Shown here in pieces: positions 2,385-56,189 of a DNA stretch of 64,000 nucleotides. The notes beneath the pieces were generated by a model. It searched no databases and was not told the origin of the DNA. It was given only the letters and a program-made list of their open reading frames with translations. The position numbers and the translations under genes were made by a program. The stretch spans positions 1 to 64,000 of the forward strand of contig KZ538086.1 of NCBI GenBank assembly GCA_000934665.2, given 5' to 3'. Within the stretch, counting starts at the first letter, position 1; each line of letters opens with the position of its first letter. The stretch comes from Catajapyx aquilonaris (lineage: Eukaryota).

Positions 2385-2417
2385 CTAATGATCATTTTTG
2401 TTTCATTGCAGGTAAGT
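2385..2417 (+). other. Recursive splice site (ratchet point) 1: branch point, pyrimidine tract, CAG|GTAAGT, junction 2411/2412
   Basis: Sequence reads tttaCTAATgatcatttttgtttcattgCAG|GTAAGT. CTAAT branch motif is at 2385-2389, with no AG between it and the acceptor AG (2410-2411). A perfect donor hexamer GTAAGT follows at 2412-2417. This juxtaposition is the established consensus of Drosophila-type recursive splice sites. Confidence 0.8.
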
Positions 2418-2479
2418 TCAAGTCCCGAATGCATAGCGATACCTTCATGCGCTGGTAACCGAAGGTATTAAAGGAGACC
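2412..2479 (+). other. Cryptic RP exon downstream of ratchet point 1 (68 nt to ACC|GTAAGT at 2480; alternative 53-nt end at AAG|GTATTA, 2465)
   Basis: Second GTAAGT at 2480-2485, with weaker donors at 2455 (CTG|GTAACC) and 2465 (AAG|GTATTA). The 68-nt version has stops in all three frames. Neither 53 nor 68 is a multiple of 3. Confidence 0.5.
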
Positions 2480-3910
2480 GTAAGTAGACAAATGACTGGG
2501 CTGAATTACGACGAGAGTATCATCCTGTCGCCATACCTCCCGCGAGATTTTCACTTATCAAGGCTCGCAGAGTTGGAGTCGATGCTGACAGATGCCCCCC
2601 TCCGACACTTTCCTTTTCTGCTGGTTGCGGGAGAGCTCCAGCGAGGGAAGAAGACGGGGGAAAAAAACACCCTCGACTGTGGCTCCCCCTTTCCTCCTTT
2701 TTGCCTCTTTCTCTTCTTTGAAGCCCACAGTATCGCCTGGAAGCGTCGGTAGCGTCGAGGCTTTATCCGTAACGCGACCTTTGATTTATGTGCCCATTTG
2801 ATATATCCTTTGGCTGCACCCCCATGATGAAATACTTCCGAAGGATTGGGAAAAAGACGTGATTTTGCTTCCAAATCAAGTCAAATTTTCCTTTTTCGAG
2901 CACCCTCATTTATTATTATTGGATGGTCGGTGGAGGGAGGGCAACCATCTTTAAAGAGAGGATTAAGTCAGCATATAGACACGAGTAGTTGTTGGCATTT
3001 GAAATCTGAAGTACCTGGTATGCGGCACGTGTAAATGCAACTCGGGAAAGTTTCCGTTTTTCGTATGTGAAAGAATGATAGGACAAGATTGACGAGTGTC
3101 AACACATTTAGAGCAATCAGTTCAGCCTTGCATTCGCAATCAAAACGCAATGAGTCGGGAGGTTTCTACCTTTGTGCCTGGCTCTTAGCGTGTATCATAT
3201 TCTCAGGCAACATCAGGAAACCATTCCTTTTGTATAGGTTAAGGTGTGCTTCTCATTGTCGCAGCCGTAATGAAGCCGTACAGTAACGCGTTTGTGAACG
3301 TGCCCACTACAGCATATCATGTTGAGAGATTCTCATTTCAGGCGACTGCTTTGCATATTGTTTCTGAACGCTCCCAGCCTTATCTAAATTAGCAGGTGCG
3401 CCATTCACCATCGGATTATTTCAGTGAACGAAAAGCAGCCGACTCGGCAAATTCTGCTGGCGGCAATTAGGATTTTTTATTTTCGACAGGTCTCGACGAC
3501 ACACACTTTCACACTCGAAGGTAGTGAAAGTGCGTGCTTTCTGAACTGCTTGTAAAGGGAGTCTGGCAGGAGTTTCACAGAGAACAATGCAAGACCCGTG
3601 TTATGCATCAAATAGGTTAGTAGCAATCTTGGCAGTGGAGGGGGTAAGAGGGACCCTTATGACGGTTATGGGCTCCTTATTCTTGCCGACTGTCTCTTGC
3701 CAGCCTCCTCTAACTTCTCCTTGGTCCGGGTCTCAAGGGAGTCAAGACGCTCCACCAACTCCGAGTGGATGTTATAGCCGACTGGTAATGAAACAGAAAC
3801 ATAAAGGCAAATGAAAGCAAATCATAAAATCCCCGAATGGCCCGGTTTGGCGGGTCAAACTGACTTTTAAAATTCCAGAGTCGTCCCAGCCGGCGCAGTT
3901 AGTATGGGGT

Positions 3911-3937
3911 GGGGGGGGGGGGGGGGGGGGGNGGGGG
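3911..3937 (+). repeat. Poly-G tract (contains one N)
   Basis: G run 3911-3937 with N at 3932, flanked by further G tracts. Confidence 0.9.
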
Positions 3938-6900
3938 TGGGGGAGTTGGGTCGCAGTGGAGGCCGGTATATATAATATGTATAAGCGAAGTGATTTGAGT
4001 TCCTCTTCCCGGAGGGCACGGTTACTAAAATTTATACGCCATCTACGGCCCGTCCGGCGGCGTCACTTGATTATTATTCTTTGGAGGATGCACTGGCACC
4101 GCGACGTGAAATCGCCTTTGATTTAGCTGTACCAAATCGGGCTTGAATCCCGGCGCATTAGTTGTCTGGTGGCAGGGGAGTTGGCTTGGAGTAGTAGTTG
4201 CTGGTGCCGGAGTCTTCTGCCGCTTGCCTGCCTCCAACATGGCCTCAAAGAAAAAGACAGGGAGTAATTGCGCGGAACATCCAGGGAACTCCACCCCACT
4301 GCCTTCCCCACCCTCCTCTCCCCACTTACCGACTTCAGGACTCTTGTTGGCGGACGACAGCATATTAAAATTCATACGTGTTAGCATCTCTTTTCTCTCT
4401 CGGGGTGTGCAGCCGAGTAATCGATTGGAAACAATAGCGGTTGACAGTGATTTCCCCATTTATCAGCACCTCTTGGGGTGACGTAGAGAGGGCCCATTTG
4501 TACCCGTCCGGGGGAAGGAGTGGGTCAGGACTTTCACATGGCGAGCATCCTGCGGCTGCTCTACTTCTACTGCAATGCGCAGGCATCGCCTGGATCCTAT
4601 CCAGCCACTGAAGGAAGGCTCTGAAGACTATGAATATCTTGTTCTTGCTATCGGGGTGGTGGTGTGCTTTGCTATAGGTGAGGGAGGGAGGAAGGGAGGC
4701 TTGCGTGGTCGGTGGCGCTGGTGGAGGTGGCAGCTGGAACCATCCCAATTGCCATCATTGCAGGACGCTCCTCTGCCACTCGACTCTACTACAGGGTACT
4801 CTAACAAGGGCGCTGCAATTAGCTGACACAGAGGGGAGAGGGGGAGGGGGCAAAAGCGCGTAGTTGTTTTAGCGCGTACAGTGAGAGCACTGGAATTGAA
4901 ACTGCATTGGATGCCTGGTATTGGAGCACCCCTTCCGTACGAGGCGGAATTCCCCAACTATTTGCCAGTATTTCAAGCAGTTGTGTGCGATAAGCAATTT
5001 ATGTAGCTAATATCTGGTCGTGTGATGGGGAGGGATCGCAAGGCCAATGTATAGGAGAGATCAGAACAGGTCACCAATTATCTAGACACGAGTCTGAGAT
5101 ATTCATGAAAGTGTGATACCAGCTCAATCAATCTTCCCGCCTAAAAAACACATCACACAGCGACGCCATTGATCTAAAAATAAATAAAAGTACAGATATA
5201 AACTTATACAGATGCCATTAAATATGGCAGGTATTCGACTGGCGCGTGCCCTATAAATATGAACACCGAAAATTAAAATATGTACTCAAACAGGAAATTT
5301 ACTAACTTAAAGGCAAGTTTAACTTGTGAAATATTCAGGCCGCATTTACATGCTCACAGTAACCATCCGACATAGGTGGATTATTTCGCGTGATGCACAG
5401 CTGTTTTTTTAAATAAAATTTATTGCTGTTTGTGAGGATTTGCTCAGATTCTTCGCAGATATTCGCCTCGAAGCTGTGGCGGACACAAGTGTGTTGCCAA
5501 TCAGCAGTGTGTGAAGCTTAATCCGTTAATTTGATATAAAGTGACTCTGCTGACCATTTTTCTTACAATGTTATTTTGAACCACCACTGCACTGGCGCTT
5601 CTCCTCGCTGCCTCGACCCAGCTCGTCTCAGGCCTCGACACACCCGGAGCATATTTTTGTTTTTCATCCGACTCACTCAGTCCCAGGTGATGGCAAAAGA
5701 GGTTCTTTTTTTTCCACTTGGGAGAAAACTTGGCTTTCTATATCCCTGCACATTCCGCCCCTCCCTCCCCGCTCCCTGGCAGGCAAAAGAGGAGGAGGGG
5801 GCGCAATATGGCGTAAGAGGGGGATTCTCCAGGAATGAGTATGGGTCTCGAGGGAGTTGTGTGAACGCCATTGCACTTTCTACTATTGCTTCGGCAGGTG
5901 GGGGTTTATGGAGATGTTTGTATTTTGAGGGGTTGGCGGGTGGCGGGGAGAAACCGAAACCTGGCTTTTTGTGTACGAGTATGTCTCGATATTAGGGATG
6001 CAATGCGTTTGTGGATGGAGAAGTCTCTTTTTTATGGAGGGTTCGGGCGATGACTTTTGATTTGTGGTAATCTGTGGATGTAGAGGTAGGAGGACTTCAG
6101 ATTGGAAATATCGTATCAATTCAATGAGTAAATTGGAGCATAACATACACACCCACGTCACTTGCGTGATTGCTATTTTTTTTTGGGTGCACCAGTTTGT
6201 AGTACACAAACAATAAGAAATAATTTAGCGATTCAGGGACATGGTTAGCTTGATGCGCATGTTACATTACAAATGACGTGACGGCCAAAAACGAACCGAA
6301 AATGGGAACCACAGGTGCGGTAAGAAATAAGGTCGCAGTTTTCAGACCACTTTCAGACTGTATCTATCCCAGAGATAATAAGCGTTTGTGTTTATTTGGA
6401 AGTGGAAGGGATTGACTGCTTCGTGGATTTCAGAACTGAGTGATCTCGTAATATACAGCAGAAGAAATTGTTCAAGTGTCACCCCCGAAATGATATCTCC
6501 TACAGAAATAACTCAGATATCTTGTTTTTATGTCAATTTTAGGCCAACTTAATAGAAATTGACATGCATCACTTCTGATATTTGCAGGGATAGTGTGCTT
6601 TTTCCGTTTTTTTGTTGCGGCTTGTGGCCCTTTAAAGTTATATGTTTTTTTTTTGGGGGGGGGGGGTTGATGAAAATCGCCATAGGGATGTTTTGATGTC
6701 ATGTTGTTGACTATGAACAGCTAAAGATCCGTTCCCTGTAACGTGAGTAAAAAATCAACTTTAATTTTAACGGAGAAATATTTGAGTGCTCTTTTTCATG
6801 CCCGTATCGCCTTGGGCTTCCCTTGGTGCTTTGTTATTCCTACATACACGTATTTTATCTGCACAATTTTTTTACTGCCTTGGTAATGCCTGCTAGTACG

Positions 6901-9900
6901 CGTGTATGACATGGATAGTAATGCAAAACTAACACGGCTGTTTTGAATTGTACTGGCCATTTATTAAGCTATAGATCATACGCGCGTATTAATAATGGTC
7001 ATAATGCATAATATGTGTTTATTTACAATTATGAGGCTTCTATGTAAAGTTAATGCATTGAATTAACTCGTTCCAGTTATCAAAACATATCGCTTAGCCC
7101 AGGAAATGATGGTCGCGCGTGTACTCACTCTGATTGCAGCCAGTGGCAGGCAAAATGGATCGGTGTTGCTTGCTTACCATCTCTCCAGCCGGTGGCAAGA
7201 GATTTCCCTCACGTTTGGAAGCAATAAGAGGCGTTGGATTTGTATCGTAAAAAGCGGGCGTGTCGGATTTTCTACTAATGAAACTCAGGACGGAGAAAGT
7301 TGGATGTTTTACGCAGCGTCCCTTGTTGCATGTCAACCCTGGCCGTTAACGGGCTTGATCGCCATTGGGAACACCCACACGTGTGCGTCGTCATTACTAG
7401 CAAATGTTTAGGGTTTCATTTGCGCTGACAATCGCTAAATTCGGATTCAAAGCGTTGGTTAGTACGAGTAATGAGGTGGGCCCACCTGACAATTGAGTGC
7501 GAACAGGACTTGGGGACGACGATGCCTCCACTCTCTTCTCTCTCATGTTATTCCGCATGCGACCCCAACCAAAGTCGAGATTTTTATTCGCCCTCTCTCT
7601 CTGTTTTTTTTGTGCATTACTCCGGGACTTGCCCCTATGGGATAACGTCGAAGAGAAGTCCGCCCGTTCCGGGTCTGTTATTATTACTAGTCGCATAAAG
7701 AAGCAGCCGAGTTAAATTGGTTCTTTTGGGGATGCGTGTGTCTGTGTGTGGGAAGGAATTTTACTGTGCAATTTTCGGGGGGAAATCTGCTCTTCCCATT
7801 CTGCTGCTTTCCTCCATCGTAATTACGCGACTTCCGGACATCCATTACCTTTATTTCGGGGGCTCGGTTTGGAAGGGAAAGTAAGGTCTTATATATATTT
7901 TCTCTTTCTCCTATCCCCCTCTCCTTCCTCCTTGTAGCTTTAGGATAGTGCAATTTTTCTCTCTCCTTTTTTCTTGGGAGCCTGGATTTGGCTGTGTGCC
8001 TTCTTCAATCGGGGGTTCACACTGAAAAAACTCGGGACTGTGGAGTGTTTGGGGGGCACCTGACAAAAAATCATCTCGGGCCAGGTTGTCGGCGAGGAGC
8101 TCTTTTTTTTACAAGGGTTTTCATGCTGTGTCGGACACGTCATTGTTGTGGCAGTTTGGGGGGTATCCAATGGGGACCAAAGTGTAATGGACTGCCTGCA
8201 CGTCGATCGCTTGGAATGCGGACGAAATAGTCTGGTTGGAATTCCTCCTGCTGAGAAGCTTGGAAGGAACTCCCTAGTGCTGTATACATCACGTTCATGA
8301 AGGCAAGAGATCCCTATCGGTAACAAGTTGGCTTTCGGGAGTGGGTTGGGGAAGAAAAGCAGCGATACTCTATATGTACAGAGGACGGAGTGGAGACAAG
8401 GAAAAAAGAAATACGCAAAAAGTCCGAAGGTTTAGGTTGTTGCAGGCCTTGGGGGTGGGGGAGGGTTTTCTTGTGTGGTCGGAAGCTGAATCGATGTGGG
8501 TTCTTCTGTTCTGGGAAGGACCGTTACTCCCCAAATGCAAACATATACCAATCGAGAGGGGGGCAGGGGTGGTGGGAGGAGGAAAAAATGGTGATTTGAT
8601 TTCTGAATTTGTCGGTCCGGAGTCGCCTCCAGTCCTTCTTTTCCTTCCCTCTTTTGCCTTCTCGGTGATGTATGCAGTTCAAGCCAGCCATTTCAAGTCA
8701 CGATGCCGCCCATCTGGCCTGAAAAAGTATATAGGGGAGGAGGAGGGGATTTTTCTCCATTATGTTTGTCTAACAATATGATTTTCCAGGGACCCTAGAT
8801 TTACCCCAGAGGGCAAACTGTAAACCCGAAATGTCGAACCATCAAGGATATACACAGTAATGGGGCCCCTGTGTCACCCGCGCAACTGTGTGCCCCCCTT
8901 TAAAAGTGTCGCTGACGCAAAACTGCAGCACATAAGGCTGGCAGGCGCTCCCAACGTCAGGGGTGATTATTTTTCAACAGCAGTGTATATTACAATAAAT
9001 GAAAACGTAAATGCCTGGCAGGTCCAATATATGGCGGGACATGTTGACCCTTCCATATTTTATATTCTTGTTAAAAGCGGAGCAAAAAAGGCCAATTTGC
9101 GGTCACGTTTTGCGGCAGGGGAAGGCAGTTACAATGTATTAACTTGGTTCCATCCGCACATGACGCTGATGGGATTACACAAAGAAACAAATATTAAGCG
9201 TGAGTGATGGGCGCAAACAAGGCCACTACATGCCGTGTTAGGTGTCGCATTATTTTATCTCTTGCTCTGGATGCAGCGAACTAGGATTTATGCCCCGTAT
9301 ACATTACGAGGGTGCGTGTGTCCAGCCCTGCTGACCTGGATGGAGGATGGGTTAAATTTTTTTATTGTTATTAATTTGAAAGAAAAAAAAATCAAATAAT
9401 GGGCCAGGTGAGAATAAAAGGGCGCGGTGCAGCTGACGGCAGGGTCTTCGAGCCTGAACGCTTCTGTTGCAAAGGATTTACAATTGATGCTGAAGCGTTT
9501 CCGGAGTCTTAGTCCGCTGCGTTGAGTTCACGCTCGGAATTGGCGGCGGGCTCCAAAGTTTCCACTTCGTGTCGGGAACAATGAGCAATTAATTTACGCA
9601 CGTCTTCAGGAAGCGTGTTGACGTGGAAGACCCCGGAATGGAAGCCAGAGTTTGGGAAACCTCCCCTGGCCTAATAATGGGAGAGGGAGAGAAAGAGCAG
9701 GGGGGGGGGGGGGAACTCAGGGCTAATAGGCTTTGTAAGTGGGCCGTGATAAATATACAGTAGGATTGGGAAAGGTGGCGAGGATTTGGCCCACCTTCTG
9801 TATCGACTTGCGGTGCTGTTGGGTGGGGGGGAGGAAAATATTGGCGGATAACATGACGCCTAGGTATAGGGCTGGGATTTGCTTGCAAAATCATACGTTT

Positions 9901-12900
9901 TATCTTTGACCAGTTGCTTTTGATCGGCCGGCACAAGGATGTTTTTAAATATTTTGATACACAGAGAAGCCTCATTGAGTGCGAGCTGCATGGGCTGGCC
10001 GCCAATCCCACTAATTGCTAGGGCTGATGAAATCTGATGCGCAAGGTTAACGCTCGCTCCAATTCAAGCATGAAGTCATGAACTAAACAGAAGCTGCTCT
10101 GGATGTGTGTGGGGGAGGGAGGAGGGGCTGGAAAAAAAAATCCTCCACTTACACGCTTTATTTGATGACGAATTGAAGGGACTGTTTTCATTGCATGCTA
10201 ATTACACGGCCGCAGGTTTTCATGTGTTCCCAATCATACATGATTACGTTAGTTGGTTTTAAAAAGTGGTTTCCGGGTTTCATCGTGCGGTGTCGGTGTG
10301 TGAGCCTTCCAGGGAAGGTATAATTACGTAATCCTGCATAAGCTACTCGCCAGATATTTATAGTTTCAGGACGTGTGATGGCGATTTGTGAAGTCTGAAT
10401 TTTGAGTTGCTGAGAGCATAATAAGATGGCATAGTGGAGCGTTTTCTCCATCGTAGGGCCGAATTAATGTGTGCCAACAGTTGAGCTACAGCTATACCCA
10501 TGCTGAGAAAGTAATTTTGTGCCAGTAAATTATTTATAGACGATATTAATTTTCTTTCGGCTGCGCAAACATGTATTTCCCAAGAAATATATTATTTCTA
10601 CGAGAAATCCCTTTTACAAAACGCTGCAAATCGATAATGCACTTATAACAAAGAACTTTGTTGTTCATATAAGTTACATATTGTATCATTTCCTTAAAAA
10701 TTCTTACCGGATACCTATTGCAAGCATCTCGAATGCCATCTGCTTGGATTTGAAAAAGGATGGCATCACTTGTCTAGGCCCAAATAAACTGTGCCTTCTG
10801 GGTAAAGCAGCATATGCTAGTAATCAATGTGCATCCATAGGTGTATACAACACCCATGTATGGATTCGCCGATAAAATAGCGTAATCGTGTCAGCATGTG
10901 CACGCTTGACTTACTGCCACTTTTTTGTTGTTGAAAAAAAAAATCTCTTCTCATAGATCTGCACCGCTCTTGTTTGAACACCCTGTACCACCTGCTATAG
11001 AATTGGGAGGGTTCCCATGGGGGTACATCATATGGATTAGAGATAGCAGTGGGATATAGGTGAGGTTTTTTGTGTGGATGTTATTATTAGAGTGGGTTTT
11101 TGCAAACATGACCTACATTTTCCACTCATTATACCCACCTGTTCTGCGAGTATGTAATTGAATGTCGGTCAAGGGGGAAACAAAGTTGTTTCAGCGTACA
11201 CCCGATTAAATCCGTGTTGCATTATGCATGCTTGTTTAACTCGCTCTTCAAACGGGATTTTCAATCCGGAATTTTGCCGCAAGTGTTTGTGGCATGAATG
11301 ATTTACAATCGCGCTGGAAAAGATGGCGTCATGGTTACCCAACCCTCAGCAAACATGCTGTGTGGTGTGGAGCCCAAAGGTGTGCGCCACATTTGCCATT
11401 GATCGCCGCAGGTTTCCGCTGCCAGGCTTCAGGTGAAGGGCTTATCTTTTGTCATTCGCGCGTCGAAATCTCCAAATGTAGAGGCCAAGTAGAGCACTCA
11501 AGTGGACTCTCATCTGCGCGGGTGATCATTGACGCTGACGAAGAGACTTGAAGTGGTCGCCCGGTGCATGCCTTTGGAGGGAATGGATTTCGCTTGCTCT
11601 TGCATCACAAAGCAGGCCCGAAAACAGAGACTTTGGTAATGGCTGGGTCGGGTAAAGGGTGGGTGGGTGGTAGAGTGGAGGGGGGGGGGGTTTTGATGTG
11701 GCGGCTGGCCGGCTTTTGTTTGTGGGTGGGTGGCTGCCTTGCTTCTGGGGGTGCACTTCGAACTGGGAAAAGTGCCCGCGACGTCCTGTCTGCGATGCAG
11801 TTGGTCCAGCCCATGGAAATGAGTGCAAACACAGGCGGGGTTTGTGCTTTTGTGGGAGGAAGGGAGGGAGAAAGTAGTTGCCAAGATGCAGGCCCCCCCG
11901 GTTTTCTGGCCTTTGCCAAAATGTGCTTTTCGGGGGGAGGAGGAGAGATCCCTTAAATGTATCGCATCTTCCAGACCGAATTTTGCGTCTGTTGCCAAAC
12001 GCTTGATGATGTTGGGATTAATTTTTTTTTTTCCTGCCCTTCTGATGACCCAGGCAGCTGAGCACTGGTCGTTCAATAGAGCATAATCCATGCCTGTACG
12101 TAATTATTGATGATTGATCTCCATGTGAATTGACCGGAAAAAGGCAAACATGTGATCGTATGTGCATAATTTAGCGAGTTTGCGCTCGTGTTTTTTTATT
12201 GATACAGATCAACTTCAAACAGTCATTTTTCGTCACTATGTGATGCTGATTCATTATTAATGGACGCACAGCGTCATGCACTGCCAGTTTGTTAGCTGCA
12301 AAAAGCAAAGCAACAACATTAAAAAAAAATCCGAGGCCATTTATTTTTATACTGTACACTCTGTGATCCTGTTGAATTTGGTGTACTTTATGGCATTTCG
12401 AGGGAGAGTCTGTCAGACCATTATTGAGAATAGTCTAGGCTGGGCTATCCAATTTTGAATTTATTCCACGATCCATAATGTTATTGTATCATACGGCCTG
12501 ATGTAACGCCGTTTTTTAAAAATTGAACACCTCTTTTTGGAGGTTTTGCCACAGCACTGTGAGCACTATTTGCGCGATTTATAGCCTATATTTGTTGCTA
12601 ATCATTAGATCAGTCTTTCATTCGAGTGACGTGCATTCCAGGTATAGTGTAATGATTAGTGGTGATCTGATTTTGGAGTTCCTTGGTACAGGGAGCTAGC
12701 TCACTTTGGATGGAGTTTGTATTGGCACCAAAACTTCATTCCCCTGCTAGATTAAACCCCAACATCCTGAGAAGGAAGGCGGACTGATTAATATTGCATG
12801 CGTGGATGTTGTAAATCCTCCATGGACGTCTCAGGAAGTTGGCGAAAGTCAGCCCCATCTCTACCAGGCCCGAAAGTATTAATGGCAAGAAGGTAAACTT

Positions 12901-15153
12901 ATTTCAAAAGACTGTGCTAAATTGCTTGCTGCGGTTTTCTTGGCTTTCCATAAATGTAATTAACGTGGTGCTGTAAGTTACCGTGGCCCGCAAGGATTAC
13001 TCCCAAGGTGGGGGGAGGGGGGGGGGCACCTCGAAGCTCTCGAGACGAACACCTTGATTTGTATGCCTCAGTGTGTGCTTGGCCCGGTGTTGACTTTTCG
13101 CCGGTCGCATCAACCAAGGGAAACTTCATTGTGCTTTTCTTCTGACTTTTGGATCACGCCCTGGCAGGCCAAGGCTCATGATAGATGTAGAAAATGGCCA
13201 TTGTTGGGCTAATTATTGGTACACTCTAAAGTCACTCGAGTATAATGCCAGCTAATTATTGATACCATACCGTACCGCCTTATTATAGTTTGGAATCCAG
13301 ATGGCACAAATTAATTTTGCGTTTGTTTACAAGTAAGGGGAGGGTGACAAATTGCGACAAGTCAGACTTGAGTAGAGCAGCAATGACGAGCAGGTGGGAC
13401 GTGTCACATGTTAGGAGCGTCAAACGGTGATGTAAACGGCGACAACTTAAACACTTACTATCGTGTACAGGCGCACTCGACTTGGAGCGTGAGTGGGTTG
13501 CGGCAGGTTTTTGATCCCCGGCGCTGAACAAGCTCTCTGGGCGCGTTGGAAATTTTTGAAGAGTAATCAGGAATGGGAAGGGTTGCAGCCCCCCTTCCCT
13601 TCCACCAATCCCCCACAGTTTTGCCAGGAGTTTTCGGTATGCTCAGCCTCCCCTTCCACCATGCTCACACTGGCAAGCCTTGAGAGCCAGCTCCCTATGA
13701 GCTTAATTGGGCGTATTTCACCAAACACGTCCCAAGTGCTGTTGGCAGCAGTACTCATCATGAAGAGCTTATCAAGACCGGGGCAAAATGTCCCACTCCA
13801 GGCCTCTCTCCCCGTTGGACTCGAGGTCTCACTGTTGATGGGATAGACCTCATTTGAACCGGAATGTTATTATTAAGTGGACATATTGCGCGTTATTTAT
13901 TCCGCGGGTGGAAGAATTAGGCTAATGAAGCATAGAGTTGACTCGTGGCGATAAGAAGCATTCTTCCTCGATACAGGGAGAATCTTCACCCTCCTCCTCC
14001 TGCCTTTGCTGTTGTGCAAACAGATCATCGGCTGGGTTGATGGGCGGCTGGGACGTTGCAGGCTCATTTGGAGGAAAACGCGGGCCCGCAGCACTGGATC
14101 TTGTTTACATCTATGCTTTGGGCTTGTTTCGTGGCAGCGCATATAAGCCGGGGTCATAAACGGGGGGGGTATTAGCATGGGAATTTTACTGTTTCAAATG
14201 CGAGGGTTATCCCGGTTCCGATTAAACGCGCGATAGCTTTGTCCATCGCTCCGTTTCGTTTGCAGCCAGGACTGTTTATTACCCTGGGAGAGAAGGCTGG
14301 GGTTGCAACTCTGATGGTGGAAAAAGGGGAGGGAGGTTGGGGGAATGGGAGAGGGAGTTGTGTGTGTGGCCATGGGAGGGGGAGAAACCACCGAACGTGA
14401 CGTTGCAAAGAAGATGTAGTGTACCTTTGTCGTCGGCTCTTTTCTCTATGCTAATCTGGAGATCATGCGCGAGATTTGAGCTAATAACTGGACGGGATGC
14501 GCTTTTGTGCATCGGATGTGATCCTGACCGTTGCACTTGAACAGAGGGGGCTATCATATTTCAGTCAGCCTAAAGTGGGGTGTGAACATATTGGCATGGC
14601 GACACAGGGGTTGGTAAAACAACACCAAGTGGTCGTTGAGTAGTGCGGCTCATAACACGCAGTGGCGGAGCTTGTCGACAGGCTTGTTACGGTATTCAGA
14701 GAGAGATGCCGAATATTTCTCCCCAACCGATGAAATTCAACTGTGCTTTATTGCAGTTGGCTGTGATTGTGCAGAAATTTCGATGCAGGGATGGACAATG
14801 CTATTCACCAATATGTTTTATTGCGGCGTAATGAATGGCCCACAATTTTGAAATTGCCGACGAGATAGCTGTTAATTATCTGGAAATGGAGAGAAAAAAA
14901 TTGCACAGGTGGAAGCCTACCGGAACCATCTGCGTGTGTGGAACATTATCAAAAATTGATGTGTACTATGCTAGGAATGTATAGGTCGCCACTTTTAACG
15001 TGAACTGTTGCCTACAATGGGATAAGAGGCATTTTTGTTATACTGTTGGATTTTAGGGCGTTTAATGAGTTCATCGTAAAATCTCGTCGAGATTGAGTGT
15101 GTTCGTTATTGACGGTCTTCAGTGATCAGAATTCCAGTTAGTAGTCTAATATT

Positions 15154-19600: not shown

Positions 19601-19685
19601 GAATATTACGACAATCCCACATAATTATCACAAAGAGCAAAAATTCTTACGCGCACTTTTTCAACTGTACTATGAACTACATTTA

Positions 19686-26100: not shown

Positions 26101-26775
26101 CGGGTTTGGAAGTGCGTCGAAGCAGACATAACTCTTGGTCGGGCGTCAGCCTCGACGGTTTCAGTCGCATTTGACTAAGTCGATAGTAGGAGAAAAGGGC
26201 TGAATCATAGCAATTGGGTGCGGATGGCCGAAGATTGAAGAAGTAGGGGGGTTGCCCCTGAGAGCCATCCTGAAGGGTCCGTAACCCCTAGCGCCCCCAC
26301 ATCCCCCCCCCCCCACATCCCCCCCCCCCTCCTCTCCACCTCGCAACCTTCGAACTGGGGAGAGGTAGAGAGAGAGGGGGGCGGGGAGAGGGGACTGCTC
26401 GAATAAGGTCATTATGAAACCCCGCACGAATTGGCCATAAAGGCGAAATTGTTAGGTAGTGCGCGAGAGGCTGTATCGCTTTTGTAGAAATGGGCAAGCC
26501 CGGAGCCCGTCCTGATGATGAATTATGTACCACTTCATCTGCGTGCCTTCTCCCAGTCACCCCTGCCTCCCCCTCCCTCCCCCTCCCTCCCGTGCCTTAC
26601 GACTCAGCCTCCGGGGTCCTTGCCAGTTGCCAGTTTTATCTCACGCGAGCCCCTCCGCCTGTCAAAGATAGCGCGAGACTAGAGGACGAGGAATTTGCCA
26701 GCACCAGACCCCAAAACCCCCCGAGGGAGGCTTAGCTCCATTCTTGGGCGTGGTCCGGACCAATCACTCAAATCA

Positions 26776-26829
26776 CCGACTCCCCCCCCCCCCCNNNNNN
26801 NNNNNNNNNCCGACTCCCCCCCCCCCCCC
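26776..26829. other. Assembly gap (15 N) flanked by duplicated CCGACT-poly(C)
   Basis: N at 26795-26809. The same CCGACT plus C run occurs on both sides (26776-26794 and 26810-26829), which suggests unmerged overlapping contig ends. Confidence 0.85.
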
Positions 26830-29800
26830 GCTCTCTCTTTCTCTCCCGTTCCCATCTCAAAATGCGGGAACGAGTACTGTTGGAGTGGGAATGACGTGTA
26901 CAGGTTCACCTAGAGGTGAGGTGGCAAGTGCTGCTGGCCTTATGGTTTCAACTGATAGGGGACCGTCCTGGCTTCTTAATAGCTCGGCTTGTTTGAACTC
27001 TCCGGGTGATCTAGAGGAAAACCAATGTACACTGTCGCGCCTCACCGACGAAATTAGTTGATGATGGTGTACGTGAGCTCGCTTCACTGACTGCAGCCCC
27101 ACGAGGGAGCCTCACGGGAGCGTAACTGGGCCCCTCGACTGTCTCTACACTAATATTGCATTGATTTATTTCTGGAGATGTAGGCACGCTTTATTGACTG
27201 CCTCCTAAGTCCTTAACTGCTTTCAAACTTTGGGGCGTTAAAAATGCAGCGCATTTTAAGAGCACGTATTTGGAACAATACCCTCGAAATGTAATATTTA
27301 GTACGTGTACTACGTTGTTGGAGAGTATAAGAGATAACTTGGTTACATGTCGCAAGTTTCTACTCCATTATACTGCGTATAACACTTTTTGGATTATGCG
27401 TCCGTTTTTTGCGCTATAATTCTGTTGATGTGGTTATTTTTGTCATTGTGTTGTGAAGGGCCTGAGGTCCTGTGAAAGAGGCACTGTATCATCAAAGCGT
27501 GGGCCTGTTGTAAATAACAAAAAAAGGCAAGTTCTGGGGAATAGGTGCACAAATTGAACTATAGCAGCCATTCATGCAGTAGCCGTAAGCTGGTGCACTT
27601 TTCCACATTTAATGCTAACAAAAATAATTGATTAATTGACCACCACGACCTTTGGTATTACACTGGAACGTGGGTGCTAAAGCAGCAGGCGTTATTCCTA
27701 CAGTTGACCCAAGTTTCCATTAGGTTGTAGGAGGCATGGATGCGTTTGAGTCAAGGCCACTCGTATCCTGGCCATGTACGCGACCGCAGAGCTTGGTTGT
27801 CGTGCGGGCCAGACGGAATGTCAGGATGCAAGTCGAAAATCTGGTGTGGTGGACTCGGAGCTAAGCGCCAATTTGACAACAGGGCCTTTTCCCGTTGGGG
27901 TCTCTCTCCCAGGGCAGGAATTCCAGTAAGCAATACTGGAGGCGGGGGAGGAGGAGGAAGAGGGAGGGTGGGCTAATTTCCGGGCTTCATGGCTGTTTCA
28001 TAAGGTGTGTGCTGGTTCCATTTGGGCTTGCAGTTGAGAGAGCCAGACTCTCTCTGCCAACCCCCCCCCCCCCTCCCACCCACCCACCCAGTACTCTGGA
28101 GGTGGGAATGGGGGGGTGTGTGAGAGTAGGGAGGGAGATTGCCTTCCGAGAGCCCAAGGTATGCGAAGGCCCATGAATGCGACAGGGAATTCGAAGTGCC
28201 CCGAGTGTTAAAACCCAACCGGAGGGACGATTTGGATGGGTGGTCAGCCGGCCGCAAGCAAGGCCTGGAAATGGTTTTGCACCGTGTTTTATAGCGTCGC
28301 CGCTTTCCTATGAAATGTTAATTTCTATCGCTGGCTCCCAGGAATTCGCTGCACTCAAGTCTGAAAACCGGACTCTACCCCGATCGCGTAATTATGGCGG
28401 ATGGAGATGGTGCAGAAACTATTTAAATTTATTGATACGCGCATTGCGCAAGTTTGCTAAGTAATATGAGTAGTGAAAGTTGGAGGAGGCTCTCTCTCCC
28501 TCCCTCCCTGGTGAGGCATTCACTTAGCTGCACCTAAATGGAGCTTAAGTGAGTTGTGACGATTTCTCCCGCTCGTGGTCCCTGCTGCTGGAAGGGAAGG
28601 GTTTTGGACAAGTCCCCAGCACGCGATGTGCTTCCTTGCTCTTCCTCACCCGACTTAATCTAGTGATGCCTGGTGTGTGTGGGAGGGTGTGTGTCCTGGA
28701 AAGGAGAAGGGGGGGGGNGGGGGGGGGGTTAATTTACCCAGTGAGTTAGACCGGCGTTTTTGCGAGTCCATTGGCAAGGGCTGCAAGTCGCGCTAGATTG
28801 GTGCTGGGGGCGGCCCTCGGAGCCAGTCGTGGGGGCCATCGACATACCTCTCCAAGTCGGCCGTATAGGAGCTCCCGAGAAGGTCGTAGGGGGGCCGCCG
28901 AGTAATTATCCGGGTCGGGGGAGCCTAAATGCAGGAGAAGTTGGGTAAATAGGCCGGGCCACTTGTATCGTAAAGTCGGCGGGGCCATCAAGTGCAAATG
29001 AAATAGCGGGAGGGGGTGGTGGGGGTGGAAGGAAGGCAAGGGAGGGAGGGAGGGAGAGACAAACTATACGTCCAAAAGCTACCCACCCTCCATCCCCACC
29101 CTCCTCTGCCACACTGCTTATTGCGCCTTGTTGCTATCTTAGGGGGGAAGGGATGGTAATTGAAAGGTTGCTTCCTGGAGTGGATGAGAAAGACCGTTTG
29201 GTGCCCGGACTGATTAGGGCCTAGCCGGAGTTTGCGACATTCTTATTGGAGCGCAACGTCTGGTCGTATTTACCTACCTTGGGGCCATGGGCTGAGGGAA
29301 GGAGAAGGGAGAGGGCAGTGTTTATTTCCCGACATTAGGTCTAAGTGCTAATATACTCTGCGAAATGATTCACTGACGTAATCAACATATTAAATCATCT
29401 CGTCGGACGTGATGCACGCTGTCTTATCATCATTTTGGCAGGAAATTAATTACTGCAGTCTCGCCATATTGTGTCGAGCACAGGGTATTTCAACGAGCTT
29501 CTCCTAAATAATTTTCGGATTGCTTTGTTTGGACACCTTGCATATTACCACTGCGGGGTGGAGCAGTATATGGATGGTAACCTATCCCTAGACAGATTTA
29601 GTCCCAAAAAGGCCGAAAATGAGTTGCGTCCACCTGGTGGGCAGGCTATCATTGTTCGGTTTATCGTGTCGCTAACGGCCAAAACCGCCATATTTAAAAC
29701 ACGTAAATGCCAAAAGGCACAAAAATGGAATTTTTATGATCAATACTTGCGCCAATTTTTAGGGCCTCCCTAAAAGTTGAAAAAAGGATGTACCGAACTT

Positions 29801-32800
29801 GGCTGGCCGACTAGCTAAGTTCCGTTCAGTCATTACCAGTCCGCCATTCAAATGTAAAAGGTCAGCTCGGCAGTAAAACCATCCAAAGCAGCAACATAGC
29901 TCAAGGCCAGCAACCAGCGACGCACTGAGAGAAGCTACCCCTCATCTCTGTATGTGCCATCATATAGGGCGACAAATTGTGATGGAGGTTTTGCAAGGAT
30001 GTATAGCGCACCTCGCCATGCTCGGAGACATGCAGTGCCGTGTGTGGGCCCCTGGGCGGCACTCTCCTTATTGCCCTGTTTCCTATATAACGTCGGCATA
30101 TTCCCACCTCACTGACTTACATAACTGCCCTGCTTAGCTTTCTATGCGTAACTTGCGACAAGTGCTTTCACAGACCAAGAAATGCAATCATGTAAATGGT
30201 GGTGTCTTTCTAGGGGCTATGAAGTAATGATATCAAGGAGCTCCCAGTTCCAAAGGAAGAGCATTCACAGGTTGTGGCGGTTTCCATAGGCCGTGATTGG
30301 AGCCCAGCAGCAATTTAAGGTGCTCCACGGATTAGTTTGGGGTTGCCGATGCTTGGTGTGTGCACGTGCATACATGCGGTGTGTATACAGACGCGGCTGC
30401 GTTTTCTCCTGGCCTAACGATCTTCGCAGCAGCAGCAGGGGCAAGCAGGATGGGAGGGGGGTGAGGGAAGGGAAAGGCAGCTGAGCAGCAGTGGACTTGG
30501 GACTGGCGTTAATACTTCCTGTTTTCCATTTTGTGGGTTGGCGCAAATTAGCTTGTTCCATTAGCAGCAGGTGGATCTGATCCCTCGACCCCTGCACCTC
30601 AGGGTGGGGTTTGGTTGGGTGGAGGATTCATACCCGCGGCAGGAACTTAGTCCGGGGCGAGGCGACAGGCACTGTTTGCTCTGAAAATCGCTGCAATACA
30701 CTAATTAACGAATACACGCAGCGTCGTCCTAATTAACCCGAGTGAATGACTGCTGTCATCCCGCGCATGGCGAACCTTCCAACCCAGCTCCGATCCTCAC
30801 ACACACACCTCGCCGCCATTGGACTGCAGGCAGGCATGGCACTAGCTTGCACCGGAAAATAGCTTGAGCAGCGTCTCACCACCCAGGGTATATTCAATAG
30901 CCTCGGGAGGGGAGGGGGGGGGGGGGAGAGAGAAAAAACTGCTGATTGCCTGCGTTCACTTGGCGGATGCTAATTAGTCCTTTCATCACTAGGGCTGGCA
31001 AAGCTGCAGCCACTTGAGAATAGTTACAGTTTATTTTTTGCAAAGGCCCGGGAATTTAATACGGTCGTGACATGGCAAACGGGCGGATATCGCATGGGCA
31101 GTGCAGCATTTATTGGTGTTGTTTTGGGTGAGTCGGGGCCCAGGGGAATGGGCCTCATTAGCTGCAGCGACCTGTAATTGTCTTCTTGATGCCGGGCTGT
31201 CCCCTGCATCTTGGCTTTATTCCTCTCCTCAAGTGCTGCGGTGGAGATGAAGGATTTAATAAAATATAATCCCCGGTAGCGATTCTTGCCTGGCCTAAGT
31301 ATGGAACGAGTAGATAACCCAAATTCCTGTGCCGAATTACCTATGCGCCCGGGCCGACAACTAATGGTGGGAATTAACACGGGGAGGTAAATGAAAAGCG
31401 GTCCAATTTGTACATTTGGCTGTAAACGGACCCGGTTTTATTCCTTTTTTTTGTGTGTGAATAACTTATGACTATAAATGCGCCCCATCTTGGGTCCGTG
31501 ATGGCCGGGTTTACACATTCTAATTCGCTGTCCCGTGCAGAATAACACTGACGCCGGAGACAATTCTGGTGACACGGACCGGGCTAACGGCGTGAGATAT
31601 TTTTTGCAATTAGTCCCACTAAATCCGGGTTCTCCCCCCTTCCCTCCCCAAAAAAGGTTAATCAGAGCGCATTTAGACGGGCACCGAAAAAAGGAATACA
31701 AAAAAAACGAGAGAGAGCGGCGTGTACAATCGCTTCCGTAGCAGCGATCAATGGGTAGAAGCACCGGGGCTAATATCGCAAGAAAGGAGCAATTACAACA
31801 AACTGCAGGGCTTTAATGAAAATGAAGCGGGCGGTCTAACTTGATTGTGGGGCGCAGCGAGTTGGTGCTTCGTTGGAATTGACAGATGGATTAATTAGCC
31901 GTGTTTCCCACATTGGCTCCCTCAATAGAGGTTGTCTGCCTTTACTGGGAGCAATTGTAAATGCGCTTGTGGATTTGGACGTGTGCGCGCTTGTGTGCGT
32001 TGGTGGGTGCCTGCCATGTTGGCCAGAGACACATCGGGGCCCAGGGTTTTGTCACAAACACAGCCGGCTATGATGGGGATAATCGCCAGCCGCCCTTATC
32101 TATGTATTACACGTCATTTGCGGTCAGGTCCGCAGGTGTCACCTCAGCATCAGTGTAATTGACTCCCACGCGTTTCCTTGTTATTAAAATATTCGACGTC
32201 ACGCATGCAAGAAAACACGGGGGACGGTTGATGGCTCGTGTTGCGGGGAAGGGGGAACGGGCTACACACATGAACCCCGCACCGTTTTTTTTTTTTTAAA
32301 TTAATTACAATTGTCATCTCCGGTTGAAGGGAACAAATGCAACGCAGGTTTTGGAAAAGCTGCTTGAGGCCACTCCGGGCATACACACTTTGAGCCGAGC
32401 TGGCCGAGAGGTAGCATCATCAGAGGTAGCAGTTGGTGGCCCTGGTTGCCGAATTTGTTCGCTCATCCCAAGTGGAAACTAATCAAGAACAAACGACGGG
32501 GCGATGTGTTAGCCTGGTGCGGGAGAGGGAAAGAGAAGTGAATGACACGGTACGAAACAATCCCGGCTTCATGTCCCCCCGAGGATCTGCTGACCTAAAT
32601 GAAGCGGAGATAGAATGAGATGGGGGATACACTCGGATATACAGTATATAGGAAATTGAAGCAGTGTTTTAGCATGCTGGACTAGACGTGGTGTGGCAGG
32701 CTGCTATTGGCATTTGAGCGACTAAGTAGTGCCCTAATGTCTGCTTGCGACGTGGAAAGGGACAAATCACAGCAGTCATAGGGTTGAAGGGAGCTGTTTG

Positions 32801-34384
32801 GAAATGTGGATGTCACATGTTTACTGCTTACGAGCGGAAACAGTCGATTCTATTGTATTGTTGCACGCGACGGTGTACTGCTGGTGGAACGCAGTTTGAA
32901 GGAACTCTTGCATTTTAGAAAAACCCTGTATAAATGACCACTGCACGAACAACCCTGCGGCGATGGAGGTGTTACGAAAAATACCCCTGCACCGTTTTAC
33001 GATTCTGAAGGGACTTCATTTACACACACACACACACAATATACAGAACACTGTGTGTGCGTGTAATTTTCCTCTCCCCGCCAGTTCATACACGGGCTTG
33101 TAAATGCATTACTTAAATTTTTCTCTTTTGTTCTGCAACCTCTCTCAGCATCCGTAATGTTTATCACTTTTTCCCGCATCAGTCCCACCAAAAAAACCAA
33201 CTTTTTTTATTAATAAATTCCGGGGACCATACAAAGAGCGGCGTAACTTTATTTTCGTTCTGTGGATTACATACTAATATTCAATAAACTGTCCCGGACA
33301 GCTGTTCGAGGTCCTGCATTAAACAGGCGGAATCGAAACCTAATTTTTAGTTCTCTTTGAACTTTTTTTTTTATCTTGGTCATCATCTGACCTGGGGGAG
33401 GGGGAGCGGGGGAATTGGAAGTGGGGAATATAAAAAAAAGGACCTGGAGCGAAAATAGGCATCGATTCAGTTATGGCATTTTTCGTCTTTGTGTATAGGG
33501 GCGGAGAGATCAGTCCAATTTCATGCCCGATGCTTCAGGTTTAGTCTGCAAGTTTTTTCTCTCTCTCTCCGTATCTCTTTTTATGTCCTAAACGATCGTT
33601 TTGTAGTCTCTAAACTTTGCTCTTGATGTTATGAGTTTTAAGATACAGCGCGATATGGAAGTTGGATTTTTACCCCTGCATTTGAGCATTCAACGTGTGT
33701 GTGTTTTGTGTCTACAACTACCTTGTGAAGCCATGGTGCACCAACAGCCGATATGTGTGAAATGGGCTAATTGAATTTCTGTGCTGTGCAATACAGCAGA
33801 GCGCCAGAATTGAAGGTGTTGTGCTAGGCATGCACTTCGTGCGGTTGAATGGTCCTCGTAATTCTTTCCCCCCTCCAAAAGTTACAAGGGTGCTGATTCT
33901 TGCAGTCAGAATTGAATGCTCTAATCGCAGCGCAGCATTTAATCGCGCGACTTAAGTGAAGGGTATGGCGACAGTTACACGTATTTAGTGTTACGAGTGA
34001 GCTGGTACTTGGCGAGCAGAGGCGCGAAATATCACGTGTATCTAAATTGATCTCGGCGAGTGTGACGGGACGTGAGAAGCAAAGGGAGCTAGAAGCCACC
34101 CCACCACCAACGTCAGAGTTATGGCAGTTTTTAAGGGGGTCCGCAGCGTAATGTGGTTATCCGAGCAGATAATGGCACCTACCCAATCAGAGGAAGGAGG
34201 ACCGTCCTTTGGCAAGAGAAGCCAAGCCACCATTCCTTGTTGTGTGTTCTGTTGTCTCCAAGGCATAAATCCGGGCCGGAATTTATCCTGGCATCGAGTC
34301 GGCCGGTTTCTATATGCGCGGCCATCTATCTGGCTTGTCTTGCGGCTCCGGGTCTAAGCATTTTGGGTTGGTTTTGGTGGAATA

Positions 34385-34429
34385 GGGTGGGGTGGTTGGA
34401 GAGGGGTGGGGTGGTTGGAGAGGGGTGGG
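34385..34429 (+). repeat. 19-bp G-rich tandem duplication (GGGTGGGGTGGTTGGAGAG x2 plus a partial copy)
   Basis: Identical units at 34385-34403 and 34404-34422, followed by a partial third copy. Confidence 0.85.
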
Positions 34430-34984
34430 AGGGGGAGAGAAAGAGAGAGACCTCTTTCCAAGTCGGGCATTTTACTGCGGACTTTGCCTGGAAATATATG
34501 GGTCTTGCCTTCGTACCTGAAAAGCGTGTAACTTTTATGATTACTGTCTTAGAGCAAATGGGATGGCATTAATTTTTCAGCCGTATCGGGAAGGATGGGT
34601 TTTATTTGCGTATCTTATTTCGGTAATGTGTTTCGGTATGCTGCAAAATGCTGGGAGAGGTATAAGTAAATGGGGAGCAATTTGGCCTACTCGAACTTTA
34701 CGAGGAGCCGCAGCAGGAGACGTATAAGACCAGGAAGGGGTCGGGGATTTGGGGAGAGGATGAGGGAGAGGGAGGGGTGGGGGGAGAGAGAAAATGTTTC
34801 AGTGGTGCCCTGGTGGTTTGGACTTTGAAAATTTATCATTTTCATTAGAATTTTCCTCTGCTGCGGTCAGAGCAGAAGAAAAAGACATAAAAATCTGGCA
34901 TAAATCATTGCCAATAAGCGTTAAGGGGGTCCAATTATGCGGATTAGGATCAGGTTTAAAAAAATGCTGGTATATTTTTGCAAA

Positions 34985-35016
34985 CTAACTCGATTTTTCT
35001 TTCCTTCTAGGTAAGC
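34985..35016 (+). other. Recursive splice site (ratchet point) 2: branch point, pyrimidine tract, TAG|GTAAGC, junction 35010/35011
   Basis: Sequence reads aaaCTAACtcgatttttctttccttcTAG|GTAAGC. Consensus branch point CTAAC is at 34985-34989, followed by a pure pyrimidine tract. There is no AG from 34954 to the acceptor AG (35009-35010). Donor GTAAGC follows immediately. Confidence 0.82.
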
Positions 35017-35063
35017 AATTTGCTGATCCACGTCAAATGGCATGGCATCTGCTCTCCTTGTCG
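35011..35063 (+). other. Cryptic 53-nt RP exon downstream of ratchet point 2
   Basis: Strong donor TCG|GTGAGT at 35064-35069, 53 nt after the acceptor. Length is not a multiple of 3. Confidence 0.6.
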
Positions 35064-35481
35064 GTGAGTCTGTGATATTGTTATTTCGCCTCGCGTGACT
35101 GCCGAGATGGACGTGTTGACAACGTAGTGTGTGCGATCTGAGAGTACATTGATGTATCATGTGCCCCCGCATGTGGGTTAGTAAAGCAAGTGCGTGGATA
35201 TGTCTGAAAAATCGATTTCACGCGTCGTGCTACAGCTGTGGTCTGCTTTGAAGGCTACATTCACGGTCACTTTTAAAGAATAAACGTGTTGCGTGTTTTT
35301 TTCACCCCGGTAATGGTCTTGACCTTATTGTCACATCAGGTAGGCCACCACTCTATCACGAGAGGTTTTAAAAATTAACCTGGTATATGCGTTTTGCGCA
35401 AATTAGGACTAATTTAATTACGGAATCATGTACGCGCCAAATATAGTTTGGACTTCAACTTGATTAAAAAATTAGTAGTGG

Positions 35482-56137: not shown

Positions 56138-56140
<3 letters not shown>

Positions 56141-56186: not shown

Positions 56187-56189
<3 letters not shown>

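Follow-up and report, generated by a model that had tools for sequence, protein, structure and literature searches.

The question raised by this locus is whether two AG|GT junctions, located far apart on the same strand of the window (the whole stretch of DNA that was analysed, 64,000 nucleotides in length), are ratchet points, i.e. sites at which a very long intron would be removed by recursive splicing. The initial annotation had placed them at CAG|GTAAGT (2411/2412) and TAG|GTAAGC (35010/35011), both on the + strand and 32,599 nt apart, and had put the branch-point A 22–23 nt upstream of each junction. These coordinates and the spacing were reproduced, and the predicted branch A was found at 2388 (23 nt) and 34988 (22 nt), respectively. 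Recursive splicing itself is established, with more than 500 sites in flies (PMC8605326, available part), and the two junctions, referred to below as sites 1 and 2, are probably further members of this group.

Site 1 (2385..2485, + strand) reads ...ctttactaatgatcatttttgtttcattgcag|gtaagt across the junction, as taken directly from the sequence. Its branch motif CTAAT (2385..2389), within TACTAAT, contains the predicted branch A at 2388, 23 nt upstream of the final intron base, or at -24 if the G of the AG is counted as -1. The motif is followed by an AG-free pyrimidine tract and a CAG acceptor (together 2390..2411, with the AG at 2410-2411), in which 14 of the 20 positions scored are pyrimidines and positions -6/-5 are TT. 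The candidate ratchet-point 5' splice site, i.e. the regenerated donor GTAAGT, occupies 2412..2417, and its U1 duplex energy is -5.4 kcal/mol when just the intronic part is paired, or -12.1 kcal/mol with a CAG exon end included. A second donor, acc|GTAAGT (2480..2485, -7.3 kcal/mol), delimits a predicted cryptic RS-exon of 68 nt (2412..2479), with a length of 2 modulo 3 and a stop codon in each of its three frames, so that this segment cannot serve as a coding cassette exon. Assuming that the upstream exon ends in CAG, the ratchet-point donor shows the better U1 pairing of the two (-12.1 versus -7.3 kcal/mol).

Site 2 (34985..35069, + strand) has the same architecture, and reads ...caaactaactcgatttttctttccttctag|gtaagc across the junction, again taken directly from the sequence. 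The branch motif CTAAC (34985..34989) puts the predicted branch A on nucleotide 34988, which is position -23 or 22 nt ahead of the last intron base, and the AG-free pyrimidine tract with its TAG acceptor (34989..35010, AG at 35009-35010) has pyrimidines at 18 of 20 positions and TT at -6/-5. The candidate regenerated donor is GTAAGC (35011..35016), a donor type that is present among experimentally supported recursive sites of D. melanogaster (Pai et al., available S1 table, PMC6110457), with a U1 duplex energy of -4.3 kcal/mol for the intronic part only and -9.4 kcal/mol with a TAG exon end. The downstream donor, tcg|GTGAGT (35064..35069), delimits a predicted cryptic RS-exon of 53 nt (35011..35063), with a length of 2 modulo 3 and two open frames. 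Here the U1 pairing is a tie, at -9.4 kcal/mol for the ratchet-point donor (assuming a TAG exon end) versus -9.4 kcal/mol for the RS-exon donor, and since two frames are also open, the 53-nt exon might enter some mRNAs. The term zero-length exon, as used in the initial annotation, is outdated for such sites: current work describes a short cryptic RS-exon (PMC6224609 and the available part of PMC8605326), for which the 68-nt and 53-nt segments are the candidates here.

A total of 378 AG|GT sites occur in the window, 220 on the + strand and 158 on the - strand. AG|GTAAG was found three times on the + strand (2411, 23156 and 35010) and AG|GTRAG nine times, and neither occurs on the - strand of the 64-kb window, in agreement with the earlier statement that there is no equivalent on that strand. 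The claim that only two junctions are complete also holds, because the sole other + strand AG|GTAAG, at 23156, is a GAG with pyrimidines at just 11 of 20 positions. The bare heptamer AGGTAAG is at chance level, with three observed versus 1.7–3.8 expected. For the composite motif, an acceptor-like site was defined as a YAG with an AG-free tract and at least 14 pyrimidines in 20 positions. Such sites represent 131 of the 3,828 AG dinucleotides on the + strand, and six of these 131 also have a CTAAY branch motif. GTAAG directly follows two of these six, versus 0.0047 expected, the probability of GTAAG after an AG being 0.00078; if the branch motif is not required, the expectation for the + strand acceptor-like sites is 0.10. 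On the - strand 159 acceptor-like sites were counted, again with six CTAAY motifs, and none of these is followed by GTAAG. Markov simulations of orders 3 and 5 (400 each) yielded at least two sites without the branch requirement in one of 400 runs per order, and in none of 400 with CTAAY required. The composite motif at sites 1 and 2 is beyond chance occurrence.

Two additional features were drawn from papers once the sites had already been fixed, namely TT at -5/-6 and a second donor downstream. TT at -5/-6 is present at both sites, compared to a background of 16/131 (12.2%) of the + strand acceptor-like sites. A second GTRAGT donor lies 68 nt (site 1) and 53 nt (site 2) downstream of the junction, whereas such a donor follows at 25–120 nt after 3.6% of all + strand positions. 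Of the remaining acceptor-like AG|GT sites listed, 0/11 on the + strand and 1/14 on the - strand have one. The joint background of the two features is about 0.122 x 0.036 per site. When all 378 AG|GT sites on both strands were ranked by six features, only 2411 and 35010 scored 6/6 and all others scored at most 3/6; the number of sites expected at 6/6 by the product of marginal frequencies is 2.1e-5. The limit of 14/20 pyrimidines and the branch window were chosen after the sites had been seen, and with such post hoc thresholds the significance of the anatomy, count, literature-feature and ranking evidence is inflated. In addition, every null model is derived from this single 64-kb window.

The interpretation as recursive splice sites is favoured by every sequence-level test that was run, including TT at -5/-6 and the downstream donor. 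We consider it probable that sites 1 and 2 are genuine + strand recursive splice sites in one or more very long introns of a + strand transcription unit in a compact, repeat-poor animal genome, and we assume that both lie within the same intron. The predicted recursive segment (2412..35010, + strand) is 32,599 nt long, and no coding exon was detected inside it by Pfam or 3-periodicity. Published recursive segments in flies range from 2,596 to 63,580 bp (Duff et al., 10.1101/006163), and the predicted segment of 32.6 kb falls inside this range. Branch points of fly ratchet points, usually an A, are at -36 to -21, and TT at -5/-6 is found in 196 of 197 fly ratchet points versus 43.76% of all introns (both from Duff et al., 10.1101/006163). 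The cryptic RS-exon, generally out of frame and about 50 nt long, ends at a second donor that follows in less than 100 nt (PMC6224609; PMC8605326, available part). The ratchet-point donor is expected to surpass this RS-exon donor in strength, with constant skipping of the cryptic exon as the result. According to Pai et al. (PMC6110457, available part), most fly introns above 40 kb contain recursive sites.

We propose that splicing would begin with exon definition: acceptor 2411 and donor 2480 would delimit the RS-exon of site 1 (68 nt), and acceptor 35010 and donor 35064 that of site 2 (53 nt). Joining of the upstream exon to 2412 would then rebuild a 5' splice site, exon-end|GTAAGT. This rebuilt donor would win over the donor at 2480, and would be joined to the acceptor at 35010 via branch A 34988, whereby 2412-35010 would leave as a single 32.6-kb lariat with the cryptic 68-nt exon included. 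The cycle would repeat from 35011 (GTAAGC) to a downstream acceptor late in or beyond the window, and the mRNA would retain nothing of either site. Transcription of the region, the order of the steps and the outcome of the donor competition are presumed in this scheme. Fly introns with ratchet points are 11–133 kb long.

In sequence, sites 1 and 2 resemble the ratchet points of Drosophila. Named examples in flies are kuzbanian intron 3, Ubx-RP, Bx and chinmo (10.1101/006163; available parts of PMC8605326 and PMC6110457). Shared properties are the YnYAG|GTAAG motif, a prominent pyrimidine tract, TT at -5/-6, a branch-motif A within -36 to -21, and a setting in tens of kb of DNA in which no coding exon was detected. 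The downstream donor, at 53–68 nt here, is found at 53 nt in Ubx-RP and at 56 nt in chinmo (PMC8605326, available part). The roughly 50 kb of kuzbanian intron 3 hold two ratchet points at even spacing, and the window likewise has two co-oriented sites. Differences are that the putative sense strand is G>C here, versus C>G in fly introns, and that the GC content of the window is about 47%.

Among the other explanations, the one that survives best is that one or both of the segments of 68 and 53 nt are RS-exons that are expressed in some mature transcripts, as alternative, poison or UTR exons, with the donor at their 5' end regulating skipping, and not traceless ratchet points. Each segment is flanked by a complete acceptor and a strong downstream donor, and at site 2 the tie in U1 pairing and the two open frames fit such a role. 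Moreover, annotated RS-exons far outnumber cryptic ones in deuterostomes (PMC6224609), and the strand skew of the window is vertebrate-like. Nevertheless we regard expressed RS-exons as unlikely, since inclusion would break the coding frame, both lengths being 2 modulo 3 and no frame of the 68-nt segment being free of stops, and since 3-periodicity gave no coding signal near either site. In flies, moreover, cryptic ratchet points (more than 500) greatly exceed expressed RS-exons (fewer than 50), according to the available part of PMC8605326.

Two known systems with RS-exons were compared in this respect. The Ubx microexons mI and mII resemble the segments in the window in being short exons with a donor sequence right after the acceptor, and in the stepwise removal of a 73-kb intron; they are 51 nt long, frame-preserving, coding and deeply conserved, and start with GTAAGA (Hatton et al. 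1998, as cited in the available literature). In contrast, the segments of 68 and 53 nt are out of frame, neither length being a multiple of 3, and start with GTAAGT and GTAAGC, the 68-nt segment having stops throughout its frames. With the vertebrate recursive sites of long genes the candidates would share RS-exon definition, reconstitution of a 5' splice site and competition between the RS-5'ss and a downstream donor (PMC6224609, available part), and with vertebrate introns they share the G>C plus T>A skew of the putative sense strand (PMC5786239). About ten recursive sites with cryptic RS-exons are known in human (Sibley et al. 2015, via the available part of PMC6224609), and TT at -5/-6 is a rule described from flies, with no statement on vertebrates found in the available parts of the literature consulted. 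Unlike vertebrate sequences, the window has a CpG o/e of 0.78 and no interspersed-repeat ORFs in 64 kb. A CpG o/e of 0.78 is well above that of typical vertebrate DNA.

A second explanation is that these are ordinary splice sites, donor-only or acceptor-only with the other half coincidental, or that the two sites belong to different introns or genes. CAG|GTAAGT is indeed also a perfect consensus for an ordinary donor, and the Pfam and periodicity tests are blind to non-coding exons. However, a branch motif and an AG-free pyrimidine tract make up the 25 nt preceding each GT, an arrangement unexpected at the 3' end of an exon; only about 0.08% of true acceptors should be followed by an exon starting with GTAAG, and here this would occur twice; and no exon-like signal was observed between 2412 and 35010 by Pfam or 3-periodicity. 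Ordinary splice sites are on this evidence quite improbable, and the interpretation of sites 1 and 2 as ratchet points with cryptic RS-exons remains the preferred one. Finally, chance motifs or non-functional relics in T-rich non-coding DNA, not used by the spliceosome, are the least credible possibility and a very improbable one, for although the bare heptamer is at its expectation, several feature thresholds are post hoc, and rare coincidences must be expected to surface when very many windows are read, the composite expectations are 0.005 and 2e-5 per window versus two observed, the two literature-fixed features (TT at -5/-6 and downstream GTRAGT) hold at both sites, and all remaining AG|GT sites stay at or below 3/6.

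The initial annotation had further placed the entire window within one long + strand intron, for which the support is indirect: no coding exon was found in 64 kb, and the strand skew is just half consistent with the sense-strand pattern of flies. In a Pfam search of 413 stop-to-stop frames of at least 62 aa across the window, no family scored above its curated cut-off; the matches to Inovirus_G7P_2 (18.6 bits versus a cut-off of 27) and BRCA-2_helical (16.2 bits versus 25) were dismissed as sub-threshold chance matches. The maximum 3-periodicity in a scan of the window was 3.63, versus 3.95 in the shuffle control, with no coding signal around either site, and no tRNA or Rfam matches were found in the 64 kb. 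Both site regions are unique within the window, and a repeat origin of sites 1 and 2 was rejected. On the + strand T exceeds A in 29 of 32 and G exceeds C in 27 of 32 bins of 2 kb. Introns of flies and other invertebrates have C>G on the coding strand, G>C being the vertebrate pattern (PMC5786239). The skew is thus an ambiguous sign of + strand transcription, as T>A fits a sense strand and G>C is contrary to the fly pattern. AATAAA occurs 35 times on the + strand versus 61 times on the - strand, an imbalance which was set aside as evidence, being largely explained by the A<T skew. A depletion of donor-like motifs was also considered as a sign of the sense strand, and was rejected, as both strands carry GGTRAG and GTRAGT in close to the expected numbers.

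The gain from sites 1 and 2 would be incremental unless the organism lies outside Drosophila. Hints in that direction are the absence of both junction sequences from the catalogue of recursive sites in D. melanogaster S2 cells (S1 table of Pai et al.), in which only shorter cores match, the GC content of about 47%, and the sense-strand G>C, unlike that of fly introns; the shorter-core matches come from other fly sites, whose flanking sequence differs. Neither junction core was recovered in metagenome scans, and a full-text literature search for the exact junction strings gave no matches. It is a tentative and rather doubtful possibility that the organism is non-drosophilid, and that the complete fly-type ratchet-point grammar, i.e. 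TT at -5/-6, a CTAAY branch at about -23, GTAAG, and an out-of-frame cryptic RS-exon of 50–70 nt, is used outside Drosophila. If so, traceless constitutive recursive splicing would be older and more widespread than the fly sites and the few vertebrate cases imply, and the six-feature sequence test could find such sites without RNA data. A non-drosophilid parallel is the 230-kb intron 2 of the locust NPF1 gene, in which a ratchet-type motif with branch point and pyrimidine tract was likewise predicted from sequence (PMC8892266, available part). The locust site differs in being supported by U2AF65 RNA immunoprecipitation (same source, available part), and the test of sequence features is more complete here. 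No report of recursive splicing in mosquitoes (Anopheles, Aedes) was found in the available parts of the literature searched.

Since ratchet points leave no trace in mRNA, they are missing from ordinary annotation. In this window, once TT at -5/-6 and a downstream donor less than 100 nt away were considered together with the classical motif, two sites stood apart from the remaining 376 and no intermediates were left, a separation implying that ratchet points may be callable from sequence with high specificity. If real, sites 1 and 2 would mark a long + strand gene, probably developmental or neuronal, and 2412-2417 and 35011-35016 would be precise targets for studying how the long intron of this gene is removed. 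In flies, damage to the donor of a ratchet point can force in the frame-shifting cryptic exon and lead to strong loss of function, as in kuz and Ubx (PMC8605326, available part). With respect to the assembled sequence itself, a sequencing run of unspecified type compared to 25001-45000 matched only low-complexity pieces of about 20 nt, and a DNA read contig spans 29069-41366 with no differences to the assembly.

Two AG|GT junctions on the + strand of the window are very probably recursive splice sites (ratchet points), judging from their sequence. Read directly, site 1 consists of ctttactaatgatcatttttgtttcattgcag followed by gtaagt, with the junction at 2411/2412, and site 2 of caaactaactcgatttttctttccttctag followed by gtaagc, with the junction at 35010/35011. 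This agrees exactly with the CAG|GTAAGT and TAG|GTAAGC junctions of the initial annotation, both on the + strand and 32,599 nt apart, and with its placement of a branch A 22–23 nt before the junction: the A of CTAAT lies at 2388 in site 1 (position −24) and that of CTAAC at 34988 in site 2 (position −23), both on the + strand and at distances of 23 and 22 nt, respectively, from the last base of the intron. Both sites have TT at −6/−5, and each site region is unique within the window. A strong second donor follows on the + strand in each case. At site 1 it is acc|GTAAGT at 2480, which gives a predicted cryptic exon of 68 nt; at site 2 it is tcg|GTGAGT at 35064, and the predicted exon is 53 nt long. 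Both lengths are 2 mod 3, and the 68-nt exon contains stops in all frames. The reading as recursive splice sites is very probably right, and the proposed zero-length exons are better described as predicted cryptic RS-exons (short exons between the ratchet-point acceptor and a downstream donor).

A symmetrical scan of both strands of the window identified 378 AG|GT sequences, 220 on the + strand and 158 on the − strand. AG|GTAAG was found three times on the + strand and AG|GTRAG nine times, and neither occurred on the − strand, in agreement with the claim that the latter has no equivalent. The statement that only two full junctions exist is correct, because the third AG|GTAAG on the + strand, at 23156, is preceded by G (GAG) and has pyrimidines at only 11/20 positions. 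On neither strand do the counts of donor-like hexamers depart much from expectation. The lack of AG|GTRAG on the − strand (0 observed versus 3.9–5.7 expected; post-hoc P of about 0.005, uncorrected) arises because A precedes none of the 16 GGTRAG sequences found there (16–21 expected), and is probably a chance, post-hoc oddity; it would also be compatible with weakly selected avoidance of sequences resembling donors, were the − strand transcribed as well. Near 19940 on the − strand, an acceptor-like CAG|GT (15/20 pyrimidines, with a branch-like TTAAC motif) is followed 52 nt on by aga|GTGAGT. The pair resembles a possible 52-nt exon, and the GT at the start of this exon would make a poor donor; by chance alone, roughly three pairs of this kind should occur on the − strand (159 acceptors × 0.021), and it is probably nothing.

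Could the two sites have arisen by chance? Bare AGGTAAG shows no excess on the + strand (3 observed versus 1.7–3.8 expected). Acceptor-like sequences were defined as YAG with an AG-free last 20 nt and at least 14/20 pyrimidines; the + strand has 131, six of them with a CTAAY branch motif, and GTAAG directly follows two of these six versus 0.0047 expected (0.10 without the branch-motif requirement). On the − strand, six of 159 have CTAAY and none is followed by GTAAG. In Markov simulations (400 at order 3 and 400 at order 5), the mean was 0.055–0.065 sites per strand without CTAAY, with two or more in 1/400 at each order, and 0.0025–0.005 with CTAAY required, with two or more in 0/400. Part of the thresholds was fixed once the sites were already known, and therefore features free of that choice were sought in the literature.

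In fly ratchet points, TT occurs at −5/−6 in 196/197 cases versus 43.76% of all introns, and branch points lie at −36 to −21 (Duff et al., 10.1101/006163). According to Joseph et al. (2021, PMC8605326), a downstream donor at each ratchet point bounds a cryptic RS-exon that is short, about 50 nt (53 nt for Ubx-RP, 56 nt for chinmo), and in general does not preserve the frame. Independently, Blazquez et al. (2018, PMC6224609) found that most Duff sites are followed within 100 nt by another 5' splice site. Sites 1 and 2 pass every such test: TT at −6/−5, position of the branch A predicted from the motif, second donor and out-of-frame exon. The background of these features is low, as TT at −6/−5 occurs in 16/131 (12.2%) of + strand acceptor-like sites, and GTRAGT 25–120 nt downstream of just 3.6% of + strand positions; among the sites listed, a second donor accompanies 0/11 other acceptor-like AG|GT on the + strand and 1/14 on the − strand. 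When six hallmarks of ratchet points were scored at every AG|GT, the numbers of sites with scores 0 to 6 were 91, 96, 26, 5, 0, 0 and 2 on the + strand and 67, 69, 20, 2, 0, 0 and 0 on the − strand. Sites 1 and 2 alone exceed 3/6, both with 6/6, versus 2.1e-5 such sites predicted by the product of marginal frequencies. On these sequence statistics, a chance origin appears effectively excluded.

The architecture is that of classical ratchet points. Its nearest analogue is intron 3 of kuzbanian, in which two ratchet points are evenly spaced over about 50 kb (PMC8605326). The same paper gives more than 500 ratchet points in flies; most fly introns >40 kb contain recursive sites (Pai et al.), and vertebrates use the same recursive logic at about 10 sites (PMC6224609). 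The mechanism is already known and these sites would be a further example, of greater significance if the host proves to lie outside Drosophila. An expressed RS-exon of the Ubx mI/mII type (51 nt, in frame, coding) was rejected, because lengths of 68 and 53 nt are not multiples of three and one segment is stopped in every frame. In the S1 table of Pai et al., a D. melanogaster S2-cell catalogue, neither junction sequence is present, and supported sites with GTAAGC donors are. A motif-based prediction with U2AF65 support is described for a locust intron (PMC8892266); no report of recursive splicing in mosquitoes was found in the literature searched.

From fly and vertebrate work (PMC8605326 and PMC6224609), we infer the following mechanism. 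Each site would be defined as a short exon by its acceptor and downstream donor; joining of the upstream exon would rebuild a donor (exon-end|GTAAGT or exon-end|GTAAGC), which would be preferred over the downstream one, so that the cryptic exon would be removed along with the next intron segment. Segment 2412–35010 would be released as a single 32.6-kb lariat with its branch at 34988, a predicted size inside the published range of 2,596–63,580 bp (Duff et al., 10.1101/006163). The U1-pairing energies calculated for site 1 (−12.1 kcal/mol, assuming an AG-ending exon, versus −7.3 for the downstream donor) fit preferential use of the rebuilt donor. At site 2 the donors are equal (−9.4 versus −9.4 kcal/mol), and therefore the 53-nt exon might at times be included.

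The window (GC about 47%, CpG o/e 0.78) contains no tRNA or Rfam family, no Pfam family above cut-off in 413 stop-to-stop frames of at least 62 aa (79 + 150 + 150 + 34; two sub-threshold matches, both from the set of 79, are at chance level), and no 3-base periodicity beyond the shuffled control (maximum 3.63 versus 3.95). DNA contigs, probably of the source sample, have an even depth of about 30, bar a few short low-complexity spots. A further sequencing run, of unspecified type, matched 25001–45000 in low-complexity pieces of about 20 nt only. Together with the unique site regions, the scans and the DNA depth indicate that all 64 kb are unique, non-coding sequence from a repeat-poor animal-type genome. 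The single giant intron of the initial annotation is predicted from the absence of detectable exons, which supports it indirectly, and the interpretation as a whole is partly supported.

The + strand is strongly and persistently skewed. G exceeds C in 27/32 of the 2-kb bins (about 7.9% overall) and T exceeds A in 29/32 (about 5.3% overall), several-fold above reported D. melanogaster intron averages. Strand skew was dropped as support for a + strand sense reading, because Bergman et al. (PMC5786239) report that introns of flies and other invertebrates have C>G and T>A on their coding strand, with G>C confined to vertebrates; the sign pair is of the vertebrate sense-strand type, unlike that of invertebrates. 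Transcription, replication and motif content are candidate causes of the skew.

By eye, the approximately 200 nt before each junction (2200–2411, 34840–35010) appear distinctly richer in AT than the window as a whole (47% GC), and the sequence looks GC-rich again 3' of each cryptic exon. The junction cores had 0 metagenome matches. Single Ns occur at 3932 (within a G run of about 38 residues, 3906–3943), 28718, 46460 and 49728; they and a gap of 15 Ns (26795–26809) look like assembly ambiguities. Seven letters at 28712, adjoining the N at 28718, are absent from one source-sample DNA contig, likely an indel polymorphism or assembly uncertainty. Word depth in the DNA run jumps from about 30 to 879, 280 and 136 in bins 25668–26334, 27669–28335 and 30337–31003, coinciding with C-rich low-complexity tracts (for example, CCCCCACATCCCCCCC ×2.2 at 26294–26329, CCCCTCCCTC ×3.2 at 26560–26591); these short motifs are repeated genome-wide. 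A perfect (TC)24 microsatellite occupies 56140–56187.
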